Assembly (NCBI RefSeq): GCF_036971445.1
Contig: NC_091477.1
Coordinates: 113,737,716-113,772,000, forward strand
Direction of reading: 5' to 3'
Origin: Narcine bancroftii
Lineage: Eukaryota
DNA: 34,285 nt
The number at the start of each line of letters is the position of its first letter. Positions within the stretch are counted from its first letter, which is position 1. The notes under the pieces were generated by a model, which saw nothing but the letters and a program-made list of their open reading frames with translations, had not been told where the DNA came from and made no database searches. Of the stretch, positions 2,490 to 25,075 are shown one piece after another. The translations under genes and the position numbers were made by a program.

Positions 2490-2686
2490 TGTAGTTCTGA
2501 TTTACACAGATGATAACATATTTCCCAGCATGCAATGTGTGTGGTTGGACAGAAACCGGAAGTGGTTTACCATGGGAGTTGCGGGCGTTGTCACTGGAAG
2601 TTGGTTGAAGCAGCTCAAGGAAAGTCAGTTAAGTGTTTAAACCCACGTAAAGTCGTTCTTCTTCAAAGACCAAGCATAGAGTAACA
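2490..2686 (+). repeat. 5' LTR
   Basis: TG...taACA; core cagaaac..gaagtggttt..gcgggcgttgtc.ctggaagt..gttgaagcagctcaaggaaa shared with 5859-6038; left boundary approximate. Confidence 0.75.
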
Positions 2687-2699
2687 TGGTGCCAGAAGT
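2687..2699 (+). promoter_or_regulatory. Primer binding site, tRNA-Leu-like
   Basis: TGGTGCCAGAAGT directly after the LTR-terminal CA; resembles the TGGTGTCAGAAGT Leu PBS. Confidence 0.75.
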
Positions 2700-2725
2700 T
2701 TTTGAGTGAGTAGGAGTTAGTAAGC

Positions 2726-3887
2726 ATGGATAAGCCAAGTCGTCCCACACCAATGCAGTTTACTGGCAATCTAGCTGATAATTGGAAATGTTTCAAACAG
2801 AGATTCAACATTTATTTAGAAGCTGGTGGAATGGGAGAGACTGATTGAAAACGAAAAGTGTCTATGTTTCTGCATGTGATGGGTGAAGATGCCTTGGATA
2901 TCTATAACAGTTTTCAAGTCGATGAGACAGCTTTCACACTGGACACTCTGATGACAAAATTTGAGGAGTGTTTTGTTCCAAGTGAAAACATTATGTTTGA
3001 GAGATTCAAGTTTTTCTCTTGTGACCAGAAGCAAGGTATAAGCTTTGACTAATACTTAGCCGAGCTTCACACACTGAGTAAGTCCTGTGAATTTGGAGAT
3101 TTGAAAAATTCACTTGTTAAACACAGAATAGTTTCCAGATAATGGAGCTGGAGAAAGACAGTTGCATGAAAAAGATTTGACTCTGGTAAAGGTTGTGAAT
3201 ATGTGTAGGATAGCAGAGAGCATACAACCAGAAGCTAAGGAGCTGCACAAGACAGAGACAACAGTTAAGGAGCTGCATAGATTAGACACAATAGGGCATG
3301 CAATGAAAACAGCTAAGCAGAGCTCCAGGAGTTTCCCAAAGCAACAACAAAGGAAAATAGTTAGCAAATACAGCAGGTGCGGAGGTAGATATATTCCAAA
3401 GATGTGTCCTGCCTGTGGAAAGCCCTGCTATAAATGTGGGAAGAAGAACCATTTTGGAAAGTGCTGCAAAGCAGGGGATACCAAGAGAAAGGTATACCCA
3501 GTGGATGAAGAAATGGAGTTCATCGTGGATTCACTACAAACTGCTGCTTGGATCATTCCAGTGATTGTGAATGAGACAGTAATTCCATTTAAGCTGGATA
3601 CCAGACCCCGGTGAATCTGTTATCTATGGATGATTACAAGACCCTCAGCATGAAGGGCAAGATTTATCCTGTGAAATTAAAAGAGACAGGCTACACTGGA
3701 GAGAATGTTCCAGTAAAGGGGGGCTGTACGGTGACTTTCAAACAGAAAGGAAGGCATCTAAAGTCACAGTTACTGATTGTAGAAAAGAGAATACAGCCGA
3801 TATTAGGTCTGTGAGCATGACCTAGTGAAAAGAGTTTTCATAATGGCTTCACAGACCGAAGATAAGCACACAACACTCAAGGACGGA
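2726..3887 (+). pseudogene. Decayed gag + aspartic protease
   Basis: MDKPSRPTPMQFTGNLADNWKCFKQRF.., zinc knuckle CYKCGKKNHFGKCC, protease FKLDT(GA-like, frameshifted)..VNLL..PILGL; several stops and frameshifts. Confidence 0.9.
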
Positions 3888-4210
3888 AGGATAACTACAC
3901 TGGAGGAACAATTCCTTAACGTACAGAGAGGATCCACTTTATTACACGACACGAATGAAAAACTGGAAAATGAGGTGGCAAATAAGGATGCCTTCTTTCA
4001 CCAGCTAGAAGACAAAAATAGACAGTTACAGGAACACCTGGAACTGGCTGAACAGAAACTGCAGCAAACAATGGAAGAAGCAGAAATGTTACCAGAAGTA
4101 GAAGCTGAACTTGCCCAGCGAATTGCCGCTCTGACAAAGGCCGAGGAGCAGCATAGGAGGACATTTGAGACAATAAGAGACTCAGTTTGAAGAAAAAAAA
4201 ATCAGTTGTA
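3888..4210 (+). pseudogene. PPFIA2: Captured liprin-alpha coiled-coil cDNA fragment 1
   Basis: [70 protein letters not shown] matches the liprin-alpha N-terminal coiled coil; paralogue assignment tentative. Confidence 0.85.
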
Positions 4211-4261
4211 ACTTTTCAAGTAAATGGGGTCCTTTTATTAACTTTTTTTCATAATCTATAA

Positions 4262-4626
4262 CAGTGGTTCTCAACCTTTTTCTCAATCCACATCCCACTT
4301 TAAGTATTCCCTATGCCATCGGTGCTTTGTGATTAGTAAGGGTTTCCTTAAGGTGGGATGTGGGCGGAAAGAAAAAGTTTGAAAACCTCTGTTTTAATAG
4401 TCCCTCATTAACTCGTTATGTGCACGGTTTCATAACTCCAAAGGAAATGCGCCCATGACAATTTTTCCTCGAGCAAAATATTTCAGTAACAATTGGGTCT
4501 AGAGCAGTGATTCTCAACCTTCCCTTCCCATTCACATACCAATCCCTTACAAATCACAGAGCAGCAATGGCATAGGGAATACTTGAAGTGGTCTGTGAGT
4601 GGAAAGAAAAAGGTTGAGAGCCACTG
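4262..4626. mobile_element. hAT-type MITE
   Basis: TIRs CAGTGGTTCTCAACCTTTTT / AAAAAGGTTGAGAGCCACTG; 8-bp TSD atctataa/atctaaaa. Confidence 0.9.
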
Positions 4627-4948
4627 ATCTAAAAGATCATTTAGATCTTGTCTTGAGTTTTTTTAAAAAAATGGTAATGAAACTGTTTTTACCAAATAAC
4701 TTTGGAAAAGAAGAGCATCGAATTTGTAGAATAGTATCAATTTATTTATTTTTAAAAAAAATCTTTTTCAATTATGTTATAACTGATTAAATGATTACTG
4801 GATTATTTCCTTATTTTTATTTGTTTGTTGTGATATCTAATTTATATGTAACAGATTTTCTTTTGTATATTTCATTTTTCATATTATCTTTTATATTTAG
4901 ATAAATATGGCCTAGGTTTTGCATTATTTTATTATTTTAAAAATTTAA

Positions 4949-5069
4949 TTGAAACAGAAGAACCAGGAACTGCAAAGGGCCCGACAGAGAGAGAAAATGA
5001 ATGACCGACTTCTAAAAGAAAGAATGGCTGCATTAGAGGATAAGAATACATCCGATACAAGAATCTGAA
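4949..5069 (+). pseudogene. PPFIA2: Captured liprin-alpha cDNA fragment 2
   Basis: KNQELQRARQREKMN-DRLL-KERMAALEDKNT, then IQESE after a frameshift; DRLL and IQESE recalled as alpha-2-like. Confidence 0.8.
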
Positions 5070-5070
5070 C

Positions 5071-5775
5071 CAACTTGATAAAGAATTGGAAAATGCAAAC
5101 CATTTTCTTTCAACTACAAAGCTTAAAGGAGCCACCAGAGGAACTGGCTGTTATGCGGCCAAGATTGTGGAAGCCTCGAGTGAAGCTCACAGAGTTGAAG
5201 CCCAAGATCAATTGCTATTGGCAAAACAGGAAAATAAGAGAGTGAATAAATATTTGGATTAAATTGTGAAAGAAGTGGAGATGAAAGCTTTGCTTCTGAA
5301 GCACCTGAGTGAAGAATATGAACAGATGCATAAATCTGTGGCAAATCTCTCAACTAAATTAGAAGATGCCATGAAGTAAATTTGCCATCTACAAAAATGT
5401 ACTGATGAAGTGAATAAGCTTCATTACTCAACAGGGAGAATCAGAGATACAAAATGTAAGTATCAGATCTTTCACAGCAGAATAGGGGGCTTTTGATGGA
5501 ACTAGAAGATACACGAGGAAATCATATTTTATGTGAAGATGAAGTTAGTTCTGCTGACATAAGCAGCTCCTCTGAAGTGATTTCTCAGCACCTGGTGACC
5601 TATCATAATGTTGAGAACTGCAAAAGCAAAATCAACAGCTATTGGTATCTGTTCGAGAGCTCGCTGATAAACAGGAACTTCACAGATTTCTGAACTTCAG
5701 CTGAATCTTGCAGATGCCCTAAATGAACTTGAACAACTTTGTGAAGCCAGAAGTTATCAGATGCAACTGGTGGAA
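5071..5775 (+). pseudogene. TPR: Captured nucleoprotein TPR cDNA fragment
   Basis: [73 protein letters not shown]....YQMQLV is collinear with the TPR N-terminal coiled coil; intronless, with stops and frameshifts. Confidence 0.9.
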
Positions 5776-5843
5776 AGAGACTGACCATGGAATGTAGATA
5801 CTTTGTTATGTAGACTTAGTATTGTGTTTGTATGGATTTTTTT

Positions 5844-5856
5844 AAAAGGGGAAAGA
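5844..5856 (+). promoter_or_regulatory. Polypurine tract
   Basis: aaaaggggaaaga just before the 3' LTR TG. Confidence 0.75.
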
Positions 5857-5858
5857 TA

Positions 5859-6038
5859 TGTTGTTATGTGTGTAAGTAAGAACTACATTTCTCAATATGC
5901 AATAAGCGCGTTTGGTCAGAAACTAGAAGTGGTTTTCGATGGGATTTGCGGGCGTTGTCCCTGGAAGTCAGTTGAAGCAGCTCAAGGAAAATGAAGTCAA
6001 ACCCACAGAAAGTCGTTCTTGAAAGAACAACCATAACA
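5859..6038 (+). repeat. 3' LTR
   Basis: TGTTG...taACA; homologous to 2490-2686. Confidence 0.8.
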
Positions 6039-6239: not shown

Positions 6240-7720
6240 TTCAAAAAGGCACACGGATCCAAAACAATACAATCTTTCTTAGAGCCCTTCCCCCTCTCCC
6301 TTCCCTCCCATACCTTAATAGGACAAGGAAAAGATTATGTAAATTAAACAAACATAATAAACCAAAAATCTATAGAGTCACAGACTCTTAAAGGAACCAA
6401 ATATAAACCCAGAGTAACATAGAATGAAATGAAAAAGACATGAGAAAAAACAAGAACGCGTCATCTGCGGCACGACCTCCTCATTTATCTCAGTCGTTCC
6501 GCTATCAGTACGGATTTTTAACTCTTCTATTTAGAAGGGGTGTAACTGTATCTGCGTACCTATATGTTGCCGATGAGGCTGCCGCACCCTGAACGAATGT
6601 GTCCTATTTTCTCCTTAAATTGTATGTGATTTTCTCCAGGGGATTACAAATCTGCATTTCTGTATTCCATCGTGTAATGTTAAGTTGGGAGTCAGACTTC
6701 TTATACACTTCCTGGCTACCACCAAGGCGACCTTCACAAACTAAATTTGCTATCTGGACAGTTTAAAACTCGTATCCATAATGTTTCCCAGAGGTTCAAT
6801 TCTCGATCCTGTGGAAAATCCACCTTTGTAATTTTTTTCAGAATGTCCCTCAGGTCCTCCCAGAAGGATCTCACCTTTGTACACAGCAAGGTTGAATGGA
6901 TAAAGGTTCCAATTTCCATACCACATTGAAAACACATTTCTGAAATTTCTGTTTGGATTTATGTAATTTTTGTGGTGTGAGGTACAGTTGATGCAAGAAA
7001 TTATATTGCAGCAACCTGTACCTGGCATTAATGACAACTGTGGTGCTGTCCAGACACAGGTCTGACCGGCACCGCTTGTGAATTGTGCCCAAGTGCGATT
7101 CACACCTTTCCCTTGCCTTACTTAAGACCGGCTTTGGGCTCTCACTTTGGAATAGGAGATACATCATCAAAATAAACTTACACGTATTCCCCTTTTGAAT
7201 TAGAATCTCTGTGTCACTACACACGGTCAGGGCCATAGATGGCCCCAAATTATCCCTTAAGAAAGATCTTAACTGAAGATAGCAGAAGAAGATATTATTT
7301 GACAAATCATAATTCTTCCTCAGCTGTTCAAATGACATGAGGTGCCCCTGTTCATAATAATTCTTGATACATCTGATCCACTTCCAGCACCAGGTGTCCA
7401 GGATCTTATTATCCAGAGTCATAGCTGTTAATCTCTTCTGAGATGAGGGGAATTTAGCAGATCACACCACCTTTAGCCCGATGCATTGATTTATTTTTTG
7501 CCATGTCTGAATTACATGTTTTAATATGTTTTAATGTCTCCCTTGATATTAATTTGGTGCCCCACTATAATTCTGCTATCTTTTCTCCTACTGTGTGCGG
7601 TCCAATTTGGGCCCGGGGGGGATACCCCCCCTCACCTTGTAGAGAGAAGGGATAAACCTTGACTGGGCCACCCAATAATATCTTTTTTTTAAAGTCTAGT
7701 AATGTCAGTCCTCCCAATTC
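6240..7720 (-). mobile_element. L1-clade LINE, 5'-truncated (ORF2 C-terminus + 3'UTR)
   Basis: GGLTLLDF..YYWVAQ, FFCYLQLRSF, NARYRLLQYNFLHQLYLTP, CFQC..GTFIH....C...FW C-terminal zinc knuckle. Confidence 0.85.
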
Positions 7721-13295: not shown

Positions 13296-13561
13296 AATTT
13301 TTTTTTTACAATTTACGTATTTTCTTGTCTTCACCAGATTCTGCTCGCTTTTCTGGAGTTGACATATTTCCCTCTGACTCTCACTTGTTTCCTGAACACC
13401 CTTGAGGATGAAGAACTTCTGTTTTTCTTGAATACTCCCCACTAATATAGGCTATTGGAACAAAATATTCTTGATCTGCATTGGAGAGCGGTTTCATGGC
13501 TTTCCAGCTTGTGTAATCCCCATTTTCTGCGATAAGCATTTTCAAGTTTGTGGTAAACCAC

Positions 13562-16500
13562 TGTTGTGCCATGATTGGCTACTGCTGGCTTGATCCTCCT
13601 CCTGAGACTAATCCTACCCATAGCCCCTTACATGTTCCCCTTTCTCTTTGCTTCGATTGGTCAATGAGGTTGATGGTTGTTCCATTCTTTAGTTAATAAA
13701 AGCCTGACAGTTTCACAATATCGGCCTTTTATGATTATTGATGATCCATCAATTTTATTAACTAAATTTTTAAAAAAAGCACGGAACAGTACCTGAAACC
13801 TAAGACATCAACCCCCGAGTTGCCAGACGCCACGAGCACGGTCGAACTTTGGCTATGCTGCTTTGACAGTTTCTTGCTGGTGGACAAGAACGCTATCACC
13901 ATGGATGCTAACTGACTGAGATGACTCCAGTCGCATGTTGGGCCCCAAATGTTCCTATTGATCAGCGATACCAATCAGCTATGGAGACCCTCAAGGCCCA
14001 AGCCCGGTATCGCAGGAAAGTTAATGAAGTCTATACCACAGCACCCTTCGGATCCTGTGTAGGGCATGACTGTAAGGCCAAGACAGCTGCCCAGAATGCA
14101 GAGGACCTCATCAGAGACATGTTATCTGGCTGGTATTTGCTCCAGGTACATACAGCAGTGGCTATTGGAACAAAATATTCTTGATCTGCAAAGGGCTGTT
14201 GAACTTATGGAGACTCTGGTGGTGTCCCTCCAGAACTCGGGTGACTTCTCTGCTGCTTGGTCGCTGCATGCACTGCTATCCTCAGACAGGGATTCATCCT
14301 GCCCCGTGAGTGACTGGCCGCCAACACCATCCCACCACGCTAATGATCTGACATCGGCCACCATTGCGCAAGATCTCTCGAAGTGATACTTTTGCAGGCA
14401 GGGTCAGCATCCAAGGAAATGCTGTCCTGCCAAGGATGCAGTGTGCTTCATGTGCCAGAAATGGGGACATTCAGCCAGAGTTTGCTAGTCAAAATCATCC
14501 GTGAGGTCTAGCATCTCACGTGCAGACAGTCGCCACTCTGGGCAGTGCAATCAGCACCATCTTCCCTGCCCTCCAGCGACACCATCTTCCTAGGCATATG
14601 ATACTTTGAGGGGTCGAGGCCGGTTGTCTTGGGGTCAAGGGCAGCCATCTCGAGTGCAGGAGCACCCATCAGACTCAGACAATGGATCCATACTGGCCTC
14701 CATCACTTTGAACCAGGAGGTCCTGCATGAACGTGAGGTCCATGATGGACATCCAGGTAAATGGGTGCAATATCAACTACTTATTCGATAGTGGGAGTAC
14801 AGAAAACTTTATCCACCTGATACCGCTAAATGACTGACCCTTAAAGTATGGCCCACTAAGCACAGGATATCACTTGTGCCCAAATCATACATGGCAGCCA
14901 TCCTAGGGTCCCGTGTAGTGAGCCCCACTGTTGGAGGTGTAGTGTACAAATGGTTCTGACTGCTTGTTATGCTTCAGCTCTATGGCCCCTTGCTTCTGGG
15001 GCTGGATTTCCAGTGCCATCTTCAGAAAGTCACTCTACGATTTGATGCCCACCCCCACCATCTACTGTGAACTGTTCCTAGATGGCCCCCTGCAGGTGAT
15101 GTGTGGTCACTTGACCCTCAAGGTCGGTTGTTCCCCCTCCCCCGTACTGTTTGCCAACTTCTCCTCTGAGTGCAAGCTGGTAGCCACCACGAGTAGATGG
15201 AACTGTGTGGTTGACAGGGCATTTGTTAAGGTGGAGGTTCAGCGCTTATTGGGTGAGGGCATCACCGAGGCCAGTAATAGACCTTGAAGGGCTAGGTGGT
15301 TGTGAAGAATGGGGATAAGAATAAAATGGTCATAGACTACAGCCAGACCATCAACTGGTATACACAGCTAGATGCTTACACCCTTCCCTGCATATCTGAT
15401 ATGGTCAACCAGATTGCACAATATCGGGCATTATCCACAATTGACCTGAAGTTGGCATATCACCAGTTCCTGATCTGCCCAGAGGAGTGCCAGTATATGG
15501 CATTCGAGGTGCATGGTTAACTTCCCTTTCGGCAGCACAAACAGGGTCTCCATCTTCCAGCAGGAGATGGACCGCATGGTGGACTGCTACGATCTACAGG
15601 CCACCTTCCCATATCTTGATAACATTACCATCTGCTGCCATGACTTGCAGGATCATGATGCGAACCTCGGCAAGTTCCTTCGGGCAGCAAAATGCATAAA
15701 TTTCACTTGTAACGAGGATAAGTGTGTGTTCCAGACAGCAAGGCGAGCCATATTTGGCTGCATGGTCAAGAATGGTGCCATTGGCCCCAATCCAGACCGC
15801 ATGCATAAGCTGATGGAGATACCCCTCCCACATACCCTCAAAGCACTAAAGAGATGCCTTGGGTTCTTCTCATACTACTCTCCCAATGGGTCCCCAACTA
15901 TGCAGACATAATTCACCCAATGGTCAAAGCTACCACGTTTCCCCTGTCAGCAGAAACCCAAGCAGCCTAAAACAGTGTCAAAGATGACATCGGCAAGGCA
16001 ACCACACCTTTCCTGGTGGAGAGTGATGCGTCTGGCTGCCACGCTCAATCAAGTGGGTGGACCTGTAACATTTTTCTCACTAACCCTCCAAGGCCCTGAA
16101 ATTCACCATTTCTCTGTCGAAAAGGAGGCCCAGGCCATCGTGGATGCTGTACGCCACTGGAGGCATCATCTTGCAGGGAAACAGTTCACCATCCTCACAG
16201 GTCAGTGAGTGGTAGCATTCATGTTTAATAATAAACAGAGGGGCATAATCAAGAAAGATAAGATCCTCAGGTGGATAATTGAGCTGTCCACTTATAACTA
16301 CGACATCCTCTACTGGCCCGGCAACTTAACAAGTCCTTGGTCGCTCTTTCCTGAGGAACTTGTGGTCATGTTCAAATGGACAGACTGCAGGCTCTCCACA
16401 ATGACCTTGGCCACATTGGTTTTTCCATTTTATAAATCTAGAAATATACCATACTTTGTTGCAGATGTCTGGACTGTGACTAAAATCTGTCCGGTCTGTG

Positions 16501-16786
16501 CTTAATGTAAACCCCAATTCTACCAGCCAGAAAAGCACATCTAATAAATGCAACCCGTCCAGTTGAATACCTCAGCACTAATTTCAAGGGATCCCTCACC
16601 TCCTCCATCTTCCTTACCATCATCAATGAATACTCCCATTTCCCCTTAACCATGTCATGCCTGGCTATGACCACGGCCACAGTTATTAAAGCCCTCTTGA
16701 ATGTTTTCACGCTCTTTGGGTACTCTAGCTCCATCCACAATGACCGTGGTACATCATTCATGAGTGATGAGTTGCGGCAGTACCTG
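13562..16786 (+). mobile_element. Decayed Gypsy LTR retrotransposon (5' LTR, gag, PR, RT, RNase H, partial IN), 3'-truncated
   Basis: LTR ~13562-13751; zinc-knuckle remnant ~14435-14485; LFDSGSTENFI; MVIDYSQTIN; FPYLDNITI; EKEAQAIV; IHNDRGTSFMS; ends at a SINE. Confidence 0.93.
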
Positions 16787-16975
16787 GGGCAGAACGTTCT
16801 AGGTGTTATAGCAACTTGGGTTCGAATCCAGCACAGTATGTTCTTCCCGTGTCCGCGTGGGTTTTCTCCGGGTGTTCTGGTTTCCTCCCACTTTTCAAAA
16901 TGTATAGGGGTTGTAGGTCAATTGGGTGTAATTGGGTGGCACGGGACAGATACAGTGCTGTATGTCTAAACAAAA
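16787..16975 (+). mobile_element. HE1/V-SINE-like SINE
   Basis: gggttcgaatcc B box, tatgttcttcccgtgtccgcgtgggttttctccgggtg, tail gtgctgtatgtctaaa. Confidence 0.8.
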
Positions 16976-17729
16976 GTTAAAACAGCTGCAAGGAGGTGAT
17001 CACTACCAGCCCCTTCATAATTGTGAAGTTCCCTCCCCCTCAGGTTAGAAGAATGGCAAGTATTGCCTGTGGACCACATTGATTCCCCATGGGACCACTA
17101 TTTCAACCACTGCTGCTGGTTGCTAAGGCCCCTGCAGAACAACCAGTTGGTCTGGATCTGGACGAGGTATCCCAAGGTTCCAACACATTGCACAATGCTT
17201 TACACGACATGCAGGTTACCCTACTGTCTTTAAACCCATTGTGTTGCCCATTATGGTTGTAATGTAACTTTACAACACTAAATTGAATGGCTCTGGCTAC
17301 TATATTCACCTGGCTTGCCTGATACAATTGTACTTGTGCCAGGTTGCTGTATGGGGCAGAGACGACTGACCTCCTCACGTTGGTTACAGCGCTCGCTCTC
17401 CTTGCAATATTGTCCCCTACTTGCAGTTTCTGTAGATAATTACACTACGGGAAGTTTCTATGTTCCACACCTGCATCATCCTGCATGGACCAGGTTTCCC
17501 AGGCCTTTGTCCAATTGCAAAGCTGGCAGACAGGTGAATGGTGACATTCCTTCCACCTGCTGTCCCTGCTGTTTCCTTGCCTTGATCCCAAGTAAATGAT
17601 TAATGTTGATAAGGTTTCTCGCTCTCTTGCCGTGTCGGGAAAGGAAATTTGGGATATCCCCGAGTTGAATGGCAGGAAACAGGGGTTGGGGGAAGGTGAG
17701 GGGGGCGTTAGATAAGTGGGGGAAGGGTA

Positions 17730-21020: not shown

Positions 21021-21970
21021 TAATAGGCTGAATGCATCTGCTGCAGATGGATGATTATAAATCCATTGGTTGTTAATGTTCATATCCCGATTGGCCTCAA
21101 GGATTATGGGAATCTATGTCATAATCGTGATCTGAACCCCAACTGTCAACTGCACCTTTGTCTGACCCACTAAGATCCACCAGCGGCTTGTTTCTTTGCT
21201 CCATATTCCAAAATCTGCAGGATGTTGCACTCTTTGCATTGACTCCTGTAATGTCTCCACCAACAGATGGGCTTGTATCTCTCGACCTTCACTTCATGAT
21301 GCTGCCAGAAGGCTTTTAGAACTTACAGTTATTGTCACCCGTCTTGGATATTTCCAAACTGGTGTCACATCTGTCTCTTCGGTCTCATGGCACCGCAAAG
21401 AGCAGATTTGTACCTGGTGCCAATTCTGTCGAAAACAATAAAAAAACCCCACAGATTATTTGTCTTGACTTCATTGTTACTTGTAGGGGTTTTCTGCGTT
21501 ACAACGGTGACTGCACTTCAATTGGCTGAAAAAAACATTTTTTTGGCTGTGCTGTGTCTTAGGTCATCCATTTAAAGATGTTTTCTTTTATCTAGTTTCA
21601 GAGAACAATTCCCACGACTCTTTTTCTATGGTGTGGGCGGGCATGAAACCAAATAGCTCAAACTGACAAGCAAGTCTATCCTCCAAATTAAGCTGTGATA
21701 ATAACCATCCAAAGGACATGCAAGCATTAATATTTCAGTGTAGATTGGCTTGTTTATTTCATTTAGTTAAAGCAAGACAGCTTTTCTGGGTTGAAAGCTG
21801 GTGGGTTTCTTTGTCAGTTAAAGGATGTTCATTTTAATTAATAATTTGAATGCATGTGCTGTAGGTGGATAATTGCAGCTTCGTTACTTGTGAATGTTTA
21901 TTTCCTGCTCGCTCTTTACACACGTAACTAGGTCGCAAGGAGACTATTGCTTAATCAATTTAGGTGTCTG

Positions 21971-22164
21971 TGTAGTGTGAATAAAAGCTCTCACGAATGG
22001 AAGGAGAACATGCTCTTTTATTAGCTTATAACTGAAGGTAGGGTCTTACAGTGGTCTTCAGAAGGACTCAGGGTTTAGGCAGGAAACCAGAGTTATATAT
22101 GGGTAGATGGGGGCGGAGCCGACCATCAGTATAACACACCACCAGTCAATCTCAGTTCACTGCA
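21971..22164 (-). repeat. 3' LTR
   Basis: TGCAGTGAAC...CACACTACA; direct repeat of 24884-25075. Confidence 0.93.
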
Positions 22165-24883
22165 TTCACCACTTCCTGCAGAATTTAGGGTCTGTGGATG
22201 AAGACAGAAAACATCGATTCAGAAAAAAAATTCAAAAAATATACAGTTATTTACAAATTTAATTAATCTGGGGGTCTGGAGATCCTAGTGGAGCGCCTAA
22301 GCATCAGAGGGCCTTGGGCTCCTTGGGTCTCCTGGTCCCCTTGTGAGGGAGAAGTGGCGGGCAGGGTCGATGGTGGAGGAGGGATGCACTTTCCTCCCAA
22401 ACTGGATTCCCTAAGGCCCTGAATGGGAGTGGCAAGAATGAGCTCCATGGCTCGTAGGGCACTTGAGGCAATAGACCCTCTGTTCTGGTGGGTGCCAGGT
22501 CCCTGGTGGAGATGGTGTCCTCCCTGCCATCTAGGTACTCCACATAGGCATATGTGGGATTGGCATGGAGCAGTTTCACCCTTTCCACCAGGGGGTAGGT
22601 CTTGCTTCTCCTCGTGTGCTTCCTGAGAAGGACTGGACCAGGAGTGGTGAGCCAGATTGGGAATGTAGTTCCCAATGCCAACCTTGTCTCGAAATTGAAG
22701 AGGAGCTCGTGTGGAGTAGTGTTGGTCACTACATAGTAGTGACCGGATGGAATGGAGTGCCATAGAAAGAACTTCCTGCCAGCGTAAGTCTGGAAGGTTT
22801 CTTGACTTGAGGGCCAGTTTGACAGCCTTCCAGACCATGATGTTTTCCTTTTCAACCTGCCCATTCCCCTGGGGTTGTATCTAGCAGTCCCACTGGATGT
22901 GACACCCCTTGCCAGCAGATACTTACGTAACTCTTCACTCATAAAAGATGAGCCCTGGTCACTATGTATATAGCCAGGATACCTGAACAGGGATAAAATG
23001 GAATCTAAGGCCTTTATGACTGATGAAGTGGATGGGTCTGGACATGGGATGGTGAACAGGAAGGAGAGTACTCATCAATGACAGAGAGGAAGAAACTGTT
23101 CCCGTTCATGGAGGGGAAAGGTCCCTTAAAATCAACACTGAGCCATTTGAAGGGCCTGAATGACTTAAGCAGGTGTGCCTTTGCGGGGCGGCAGAAATGT
23201 GGCTTACACTCCGTGCAGACCTGGCAGGACTTGGTCATTTCCCCAACATCTTCCATGGAGTTGGGCCTTGAGAAAATGAGCCATGCAGGTAATCCCTGGA
23301 TGGTAGAGCTCATTATGCAGAGACCACAGGTGACCAGTGTGTGCAGAGGCACAGCTTCTTCTGGATAAGGCAGCTGGAGGGTCATTAAGGGCTCCTGACT
23401 GATAGGTAATGTCATAATTGTAGGTGGAGAGCTCGATCCTCCACCTAGCAATTTTGTCATTTTTGATTTTGCCCCTCTTGACGTCATTGAACATAAATGC
23501 GACAGAGCGCTGGTCAGTGAGGAGCATACATTTCCTTCCAGCCAGGTCGTGCTTCCAGTGCCTCACGGCTTCTACAATGGCTTGAGCTTCCTTTTGCGTG
23601 GCCTTGCAATGTCTGAGGGGAAAAAAATGCAACCGGCCTGCCCGCCTGATTAAGGGTAGTGGCCAGGGCCACGTCTGAAGCGTCGCTTTCTACCCGGAAA
23701 GGTACATTCTTGTCCACCGTGAGCATAGCGGCTTTCGCAATGTAGTTTTGGAGGTAGTTAAAAGCCATTTGGGCTTCGTCCAAGAGGGGAAAAGAAGTGG
23801 CTTTTAAGAGAGGTCGAACCTTATCAGTGTATTGAGGGATCCGTTGGGCGTAATATGAGAAAAACCCCAGGCATCTCCTCAAAGCCTTCATGGTCCTGGG
23901 AACAGGAAGCTCCAACAGGGGGCGCATCGTATCAGGGTCAGGGCCAATGAAACCATTCTCCACCACGTAGCCAAGGATAGCCAGACATTTAGTTCTGAAC
24001 ACACACTTGTTAGAGTTATAAGTGAGGTTCAGGGGTTTCACTGCATGGAGAAATCTCTGAAGGTTGGCGTCATGGTCCTCCAGGGTATGGCCACAGAGTG
24101 TGGGTAGGGGAAGTTAGCCTTCAACCCATACTCATCAACCATTCTGTCCATCTGCCACTGGAAGATAGAAACCCCGTTAGTAATACTGAAAGGGACCCTC
24201 TGGAATTGATAGAGATGACTTTTAGCCTTAAATGTCATCTAAGGATGGTCCTCGGAATGGATTGGCAGCTGGTGATAAGCAGCTTTCGAATAGACCTGAT
24301 ACTGCGCAATATCATTCACCATGTCTGCAATTCGAGGAAGGGGGGAAGCATCCAGAAGTGTGCACCAATTAATACTTTGGCTATAGTCAATTACTAGCCA
24401 GGACTTGTTTTCCCCTTTTATCACCACCTCTTGTGCTCTCCACTGGCTAGTGCTAGGTTCAATGATACCTTCATTGAGTAGACGTTGTGTCTCAGACTTT
24501 ATGAAGTCTCGATCTGCTGTGTTGTACCTCCTGCTGTACAGATCCAGCAGGTAATCATCGATGGTCTCTCCTGGCTGTTGGCGACGTAGAGCAAGTCTGT
24601 GCCTCACTAAGATCTTGTTTTGCGACTTCAGGTGCCAAGCCTTCAAAGCCTCAATGGCAGCGTCATATGTAGTGCGGTCCCTGATGACTGCGTACCCTTT
24701 CGTTCCTACCCTGGGAATGAGTGTGAACCTCCTGAGTTCATCAGTGTGGAAGAGGTCTCTCGTCACTTTCAGGTAGGCCTGGAAGCCAGTACGTGAACTC
24801 CTCAGCCACTTTGGGGGACAGAAGGTCTATTAGCAGCGTACCTGGCTTGAGCAGTGCTTTCATCGGGAATAAGCTAATAAAAT

Positions 24884-25075
24884 TGTAGTGTGAATAAAAG
24901 CTCTCATGACTGGAAGGAGAACATAGGCTTTTATTAGCTTATAACTGAGGGTAGGGTCTTACAGTGGTCTTCAGAGGGGATCAGGGTTTAGGCAGGACCA
25001 GGGTTATATATGGGTAGATGGGGGCGGAGCCTGCCATCAGTATAGCACACCACTAGTGAATCTCAGTTCAGTGCA
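24884..25075 (-). repeat. 5' LTR
   Basis: TGCACTGAAC...CACACTACA on the minus strand, with TATATAA and AATAAA. Confidence 0.93.

Follow-up and report, generated by a model that had tools for sequence, protein, structure and literature searches.

The window, by which we mean the whole analysed stretch of 34,285 nt of Narcine bancroftii DNA, contains at positions 2490-6038 a decayed member of a non-autonomous Ty3/gypsy family (Table 1). The region that would carry RT, RNase H and integrase is replaced by a cargo of 540 nt of liprin-alpha-2 (five exons) and 765 nt of TPR (six exons), and the copy shares about 90% identity with the host sequences, as do all other copies, and has 14 frameshifting gaps. 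The primer-binding site presumably corresponds to the 3' end of tRNA-Leu, and no clear target-site duplication was found at the ends of the element. The gag region gives a weak Pfam match to PNMA, which is itself gag-derived (E = 0.0015, below the cut-off), and no Pfam match was obtained with the protease piece. Within the 763-nt insertion, a MITE-like inverted-repeat element is present at about 4262-4630; matches to it occur in host introns, including liprin introns, and it is extremely abundant in sequencing runs. Elsewhere in the window, open-frame translations and paired direct repeats indicate two more decayed Ty3/gypsy-like elements of a different family, at about 13400-17100 (plus strand) and 21970-25075 (minus strand), and an open frame at 6871-7461 (minus strand) may correspond to the end of a LINE ORF2.

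Table 1. Features of the chimeric element copy, in positions of the window.
Feature	Position	Strand	Remarks
5' LTR (TG...CA)	2490..2686	+	81% identity with 3' LTR over 176 aligned nt; repeat D4
Primer-binding site	2687..2699	+	Begins TGG and abuts the LTR; same position in other copies
Decayed gag with CCHC knuckle	2726..3545	+	From three-frame translation
Decayed protease region and protease/RT linker	3546..3878	+	83-86% identity to RT-type copies
Join 1, element to liprin-alpha-2	3879..3886	+	8-nt microhomology ATGGAAGA, eroded in this copy
Liprin-alpha-2 mRNA piece, part 1	3879..4194	+	Host exons 1-3 of the piece
Later insertion of 763 nt	4195..4957	.	Private; in the window copy only
Liprin-alpha-2 mRNA piece, part 2	4958..5082	+	Several deletions
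Join 2, liprin to TPR	5080..5085	+	6-nt microhomology AAGGAA, in frame
TPR mRNA piece	5083..5775	+	Six host exons, introns absent; frameshifted in this copy
Join 3, TPR to element	5770..5784	+	6-7 nt in common
Polypurine tract	5844..5856	+	From sequence; same position in other copies
3' LTR (TG...CA)	5859..6038	+	Pairs with 5' LTR

Many relatives of the element region are present in the genome, at about 80% identity, and of 30 loci obtained with the element side as query, 19 lead into RT and 11 into liprin. Using a junction pattern of 23 nt and allowing up to two mismatches, we identified at least 119 chimeric joins and at least 172 RT-type joins, both counts being lower bounds, and neither of two reversed-pattern controls gave a match. 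The chimeric joins are dispersed over many contigs, and 110 of the 119 aligned copies start at join 1. The RT-type copies match the window up to 3883 and resume from 5770, and matches to RVT_1, RT_RNaseH, Integrase_H2C2 and rve are found in them in Ty3/gypsy positional order, with the pieces taken from different copies and the rve match below the cut-off. Those RT-type copies that were examined are decayed. Among the family copies listed with both LTRs, 13 in number, the LTR pairs are 78-89% identical. In the genome searches the best candidates of each were scored, and recurrent markers among the copies do not define clean subfamilies. About 20 nt past join 3, five copies (L015, L024, L028, L058 and L166) have a differing sequence in common, which suggests either an insertion that they share or a subfamily in which the 3' segment is different, and two chimeric copies at G000:C1:73221495 and C1:73235901, which are 14.4 kb apart and have identical scores, are probably a recent tandem duplication.

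Four liprin-alpha genes of the host were identified from exon-sized matches, and the donor is the gene on G000:C23 (minus strand). The copies are about 79-95% identical per exon to this gene, compared with 67-91% for the three paralogues, where identities near 90% reflect few matches of 34-46 nt. The five donor exons translate to 180 of 180 amino acids of liprin-alpha-2 of N. bancroftii (P0002, residues 311-490). The TPR donor lies on G000:C11, with six of its exons in the captured piece, and it is identified both by a Pfam TPR match on a donor exon (PF25785, E = 1.4e-20) and by named TPR relatives. Introns are missing at four liprin and five TPR exon junctions, and the absence of all nine host introns indicates that both pieces come from spliced mRNA. 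Two of these junctions, at 4004/4005 and 4139/4140, are in the first part of the liprin piece, and the segment that the initial annotation of this DNA singled out as a pol-liprin fusion is thus not contained within a single genomic exon.

The sequences meeting at joins 1, 2 and 3 have 8, 6 and 6-7 nt in common, with random-junction probabilities of 0.0003, 0.003 and 0.001-0.003, respectively. At join 1, the 8 nt common to the RT-type copies and liprin encode MEE in both parents, and they are exact in 54 of 110 chimeric copies and in 9 of 19 RT-type copies. Join 1 sits 21 nt within a host exon and hence is not a splice site, and the shared 8 nt together with the spliced cargo support the proposal, made in the initial annotation, that host mRNA was captured by a microhomology-guided switch. 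Join 2 straddles a liprin exon-exon junction, and as the liprin piece stops exactly at an exon end and AG precedes the TPR side, it could alternatively have arisen by splicing of the liprin donor site to a cryptic acceptor in the TPR exon, within a longer chimeric RNA. We consider this improbable, as the match extends by 3 nt into the liprin exon that follows, which is expected of a switch on spliced mRNA and would be a 1-in-64 coincidence under splicing, and as that next exon, of which there is no extra genomic copy, occurs in none of the elements; nor does liprin intron sequence follow the exon at join 2 in any of the 119 aligned copies. A template switch is therefore the preferred reading for this join also. 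Join 3 is located just past the pol stop of the RT-type copies, and in 21 of 40 full-span copies the TPR frame has a stop two codons beyond it.

All three coding-to-coding joins (protease-liprin, liprin-TPR and gag-TPR) are in frame, for which chance is roughly 0.18. Words common to these coding sequences lie in the same codon phase in about 55% of cases for pol and cargo (at least 8 nt, few words) and in 61% for liprin and TPR (at least 6 nt), such that an in-frame join is unsurprising. Among RT-type copies, the commonest distance between a protease anchor and the join is 315 nt (7 of 17), which is in frame; in the chimeric copies the distance peaks at 313-315 nt (15 of 50), and from this agreement it is likely that the founder had one frame from the protease through both cargoes.

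The initial annotation reported a frame passing from element sequence into liprin and remaining stop-free for about 100 codons. Such a frame is indeed present, at 3807-4190 (127 amino acids); it is kept through the join at 3879, and residues 25-124 of its translation give a match to PF25526, the liprin-alpha coiled-coil family (E = 6.5e-36). The frame is shifted by the loss of 8 nt after 4147, such that about 90 codons of liprin are in frame and the last 13 are not. Upstream of join 1 the frame is open for 24 codons only, and stops and frameshifts cut it off from the protease and gag frames. The window copy has 103 open codons following join 1, compared with a median of 19 and a maximum of 154 across copies, and since runs of 100 or more occur in just 4 of 110 copies, that of the window represents the upper tail of decay. 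The placement of the join close to the start of RT is also borne out, and a piece shortly after the join in an RT-type copy aligns to Ty3 RT (4OL8, E = 2.6e-5). Ungapped extrapolation from this alignment would place join 1 about 30 residues into RT, and a protease/RT cleavage site was then probably kept; no PDB match was obtained with the first RT residues of RT-type copies. The initial annotation was thus correct as to the join, and overlooked the TPR cargo, the liprin sequence beyond the 763-nt insertion, and the family of more than 100 copies.

Three further elements of the same family contain TPR without liprin: L135 (C17:107.70 Mb), L136 (C17:95.86 Mb) and L137 (G000:C15:196.56 Mb). Their TPR piece is longer, with up to about 12 exons, and has joins of its own; two of the three keep an in-frame join at the gag end with 8 nt in common. 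These elements are the three additional genomic copies in which TPR sequence immediately outside join 2 is present. A bridging copy, L143 (G000:C22:72153000-72157500), combines join 1 and liprin with the long 3' end of TPR seen in the TPR-only elements. The TPR-only elements are probable precursors of the main family, and the simplest reading suggested by these arrangements is that capture occurred in two steps, with TPR first. L143 could instead be a later recombinant rather than an intermediate, and TPR could have been captured twice, separately. If capture did proceed step by step, then the TPR-only and bridging copies record the assembly.

We therefore envisage that an RT-bearing element would first have taken up a long piece of TPR mRNA, giving rise to the rare TPR-only elements, and that reverse transcriptase may then have switched among element RNA, TPR-bearing RNA and liprin-alpha-2 mRNA to generate the main family. 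Soon after the capture, the product, which kept LTRs, a primer site and a polypurine tract, would have relied on RT-bearing relatives for copying in trans. In the founder, a single open frame would have run through Gag, protease, 180 amino acids of liprin and 255 amino acids of TPR to a stop, and it was perhaps translated incidentally. Overall, it is very probable that RT, RNase H and integrase were exchanged for spliced liprin-alpha-2 and TPR sequence through what were likely microhomology-guided template switches, with the host pieces likely being passengers. Three other organisms have the element in many copies up to exactly the 8-mer, after which their contigs enter RT, and their cargo is at single-copy depth, whereas in a fourth the cargo is high-copy and one contig bridges join 1. 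As the capture is seen in some organisms and not in others, it is lineage-restricted and younger than the parent family.

To compare the cargo with the joined host exons, 9 of 119 copies were dropped for noisy alignments, leaving 110 (3 of 59 were dropped in a smaller set). The mean identity of the 110 copies is 89.8%. Frameshifting gaps number at least four in every one of the 72 full-span copies, with a median of nine; none has fewer than four, and there is no intact chimeric ORF among them. Per opportunity, the non-CpG ratio of nonsynonymous to synonymous changes in the 110 copies is 1.01 for transitions and 1.00 for transversions, so that dN/dS across copies, at 1.0, gives no sign of selection. 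Six sister pairs have 98 missense, 12 stop and 24 silent changes in common, and frameshifts are common to four of the six; the shared stops and frameshifts indicate that broken copies appear to have been copied onward, with the assignment of these pairs to retrotransposition as opposed to duplication depending on short flanks. The proposal in the initial annotation that a liprin product is translated, released by the protease and has a role finds no support, given the neutral decay, the re-copying of broken copies and the ease with which in-frame joins occur by chance. A fusion protein as the functional product is accordingly not supported, and nothing indicates that the protein is needed.

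Family-wide differences from the host were considered separately. All of the 24-25 family-wide substitutions are silent, and about 26 would be expected from change in the host lineage alone; we therefore rejected these all-silent differences as a mark of selection on the element. Among the sites listed for outgroup contigs, the family letter is apparently present at three of five that could be checked, with one ambiguous and one differing between outgroups, which is weak evidence. One further difference is aligned as a +1/-1 gap pair and so escaped the count of substitutions: relative to the captured copies, the host TPR (L086:7563-7670) differs by a compensated one-base insertion and deletion that alters three codons. 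The captured version of these codons is nearer to the TPR of whale shark and chimaera than is that of the host, and it is also present in two TPR-only copies. By this sequence comparison, the difference is likely a host-lineage change, with the family preserving the older allele.

Selection could nonetheless have favoured an open cargo frame during the active phase of the family, whether because a Gag-protease-coiled-coil polyprotein had some role in particles or simply because such a frame kept the RNA translated and stable, and have ended with the family's death. The three in-frame coding joins would fit with this, as would the fact that the founder frame ends a few bases at most from the native pol stop, and the lack of any family-wide missense substitution. 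The deletions are also suggestive, being in frame in 17 of 28 cases when common to at least two copies and in 77 of 210 when present in a single copy (Fisher p = 0.022, post hoc and uncorrected), and in 7 of 9 when common to at least three copies, including one of 99 nt in 17 copies. However, the commonest shared deletion is a 19-nt frameshift in 24 copies, although this is about 40 codons from the end, and of the single-copy deletions with at least 4 nt of microhomology, 13 of 27 already preserve the frame. Moreover, the sister pairs share stops and frameshifts at a neutral ratio (4.6, versus 4.3 for singletons), and 26 of 110 copies have a missense change within join 1. We thus regard such selection as unlikely, and are similarly doubtful that a 435-residue in-frame coiled coil, part synaptic scaffold and part nuclear basket, helped the element to spread almost as widely as its autonomous parent. 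Were the frame indeed selected, the coiled coil would be a particle component, or would keep the RNA translated to its normal stop.

A different possibility is that one copy was domesticated and continues to produce a fusion containing liprin or TPR, possibly the window copy itself through the ATG at 3843. The 103 open codons beyond join 1 could be taken in this way, as could short contigs identical to the window copy in a sequencing run that we guess to be RNA, and a public gene model (P0131) that joins the TPR piece of one copy to a TMED11-like gene. Set against these are the ordinary divergence and the frameshifting gaps of the window copy. In addition, no stop-free match across the liprin piece was found in the best 150 of 2128 candidates, and the longest open frame at a TPR-exon match, in the best 150 of 253, is 248 amino acids, compared with a cargo of 435 codons. 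Domestication is consequently very improbable. Among the contigs listed for the presumed-RNA runs, none bridges join 1, and the high depth over 5128-5750 in these runs is likely host TPR mRNA. In P0131, the start is formed by about 90 amino acids from the TPR piece of L203 (G000:C8:29136638-29136925, minus strand), from which a GT donor is spliced to TMED exons about 2.5 kb away; this splice may be either a true exonisation or an annotation artefact.

The family represents a clean vertebrate case of exons shuffled by an LTR retrotransposon, with the donors, the parent, every switch point and probable intermediates all still present in a single genome. As a control case, it further shows that a tidy in-frame fusion can arise and reach more than 100 copies without selection on its protein. 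The scattered liprin-like and TPR-like fragments can mislead gene annotation and read mapping, and P0131 already includes one.

In comparison with Ty3 of yeast, used here as the structural reference, the RT-type relatives are similar in having RT, RNase H and integrase in order, whereas the chimeric family lacks all three. Retroviruses transduce host genes as gag-onc fusions, and the ray family resembles these in that spliced host coding sequence is fused in frame behind gag in a helper-dependent element; it differs in that the captured protein shows no mark of selection and in that env was not observed in the family. Host-gene transduction by retroviruses is also mentioned in the sections of Tan et al. 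(2016; PMC5131818) drawn on here.

Those sections describe LTR-mediated retrocopies in which an internal ORF is partly replaced by a partial spliced mRNA, with a median microsimilarity of 6 bp at the switch points in flies, and some of these retrocopies are multi-parental and are re-mobilised as non-autonomous elements. The sequence features by which such retrocopies are recognised are present in the ray family, namely spliced mRNA, internal replacement between discontinuous parts of the element, both LTRs, microsimilarity, and dispersed copies with identical joins. As in the account given there, spliced mRNA from two genes replaces an internal ORF at short microhomologies and is re-mobilised. 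However, the re-mobilised fly cases, as presented in that text, are young and have few insertion sites, whereas the ray family has at least 119 copies that are about 10% diverged from the donor, and it keeps TPR-only relatives, unlike those cases. Cartilaginous fishes are not among the species named in the same sections.

Maize Bs1, according to the portions of PMC5131818 and PMC13317346 that deal with it, contains several host mRNA pieces, is present in 1-5 copies, and is regarded there as a new chimeric gene. The ray family is like Bs1, so described, in being an LTR element with several host mRNA pieces and with identical switch points across copies; it is unlike Bs1 in having more than 100 copies, all broken where examined, with neutral dN/dS and no intact or selected ORF. 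Literature searches on liprin and LTR capture, and on TPR, retrocopies and LTRs, returned no paper on the family, which may be catalogued in Repbase or Dfam. The mechanism of capture is thus already known, from the parts of Tan et al. (2016; PMC5131818) cited above and from maize Bs1, and what is unusual in the ray family is its copy number and the survival of its relatives.
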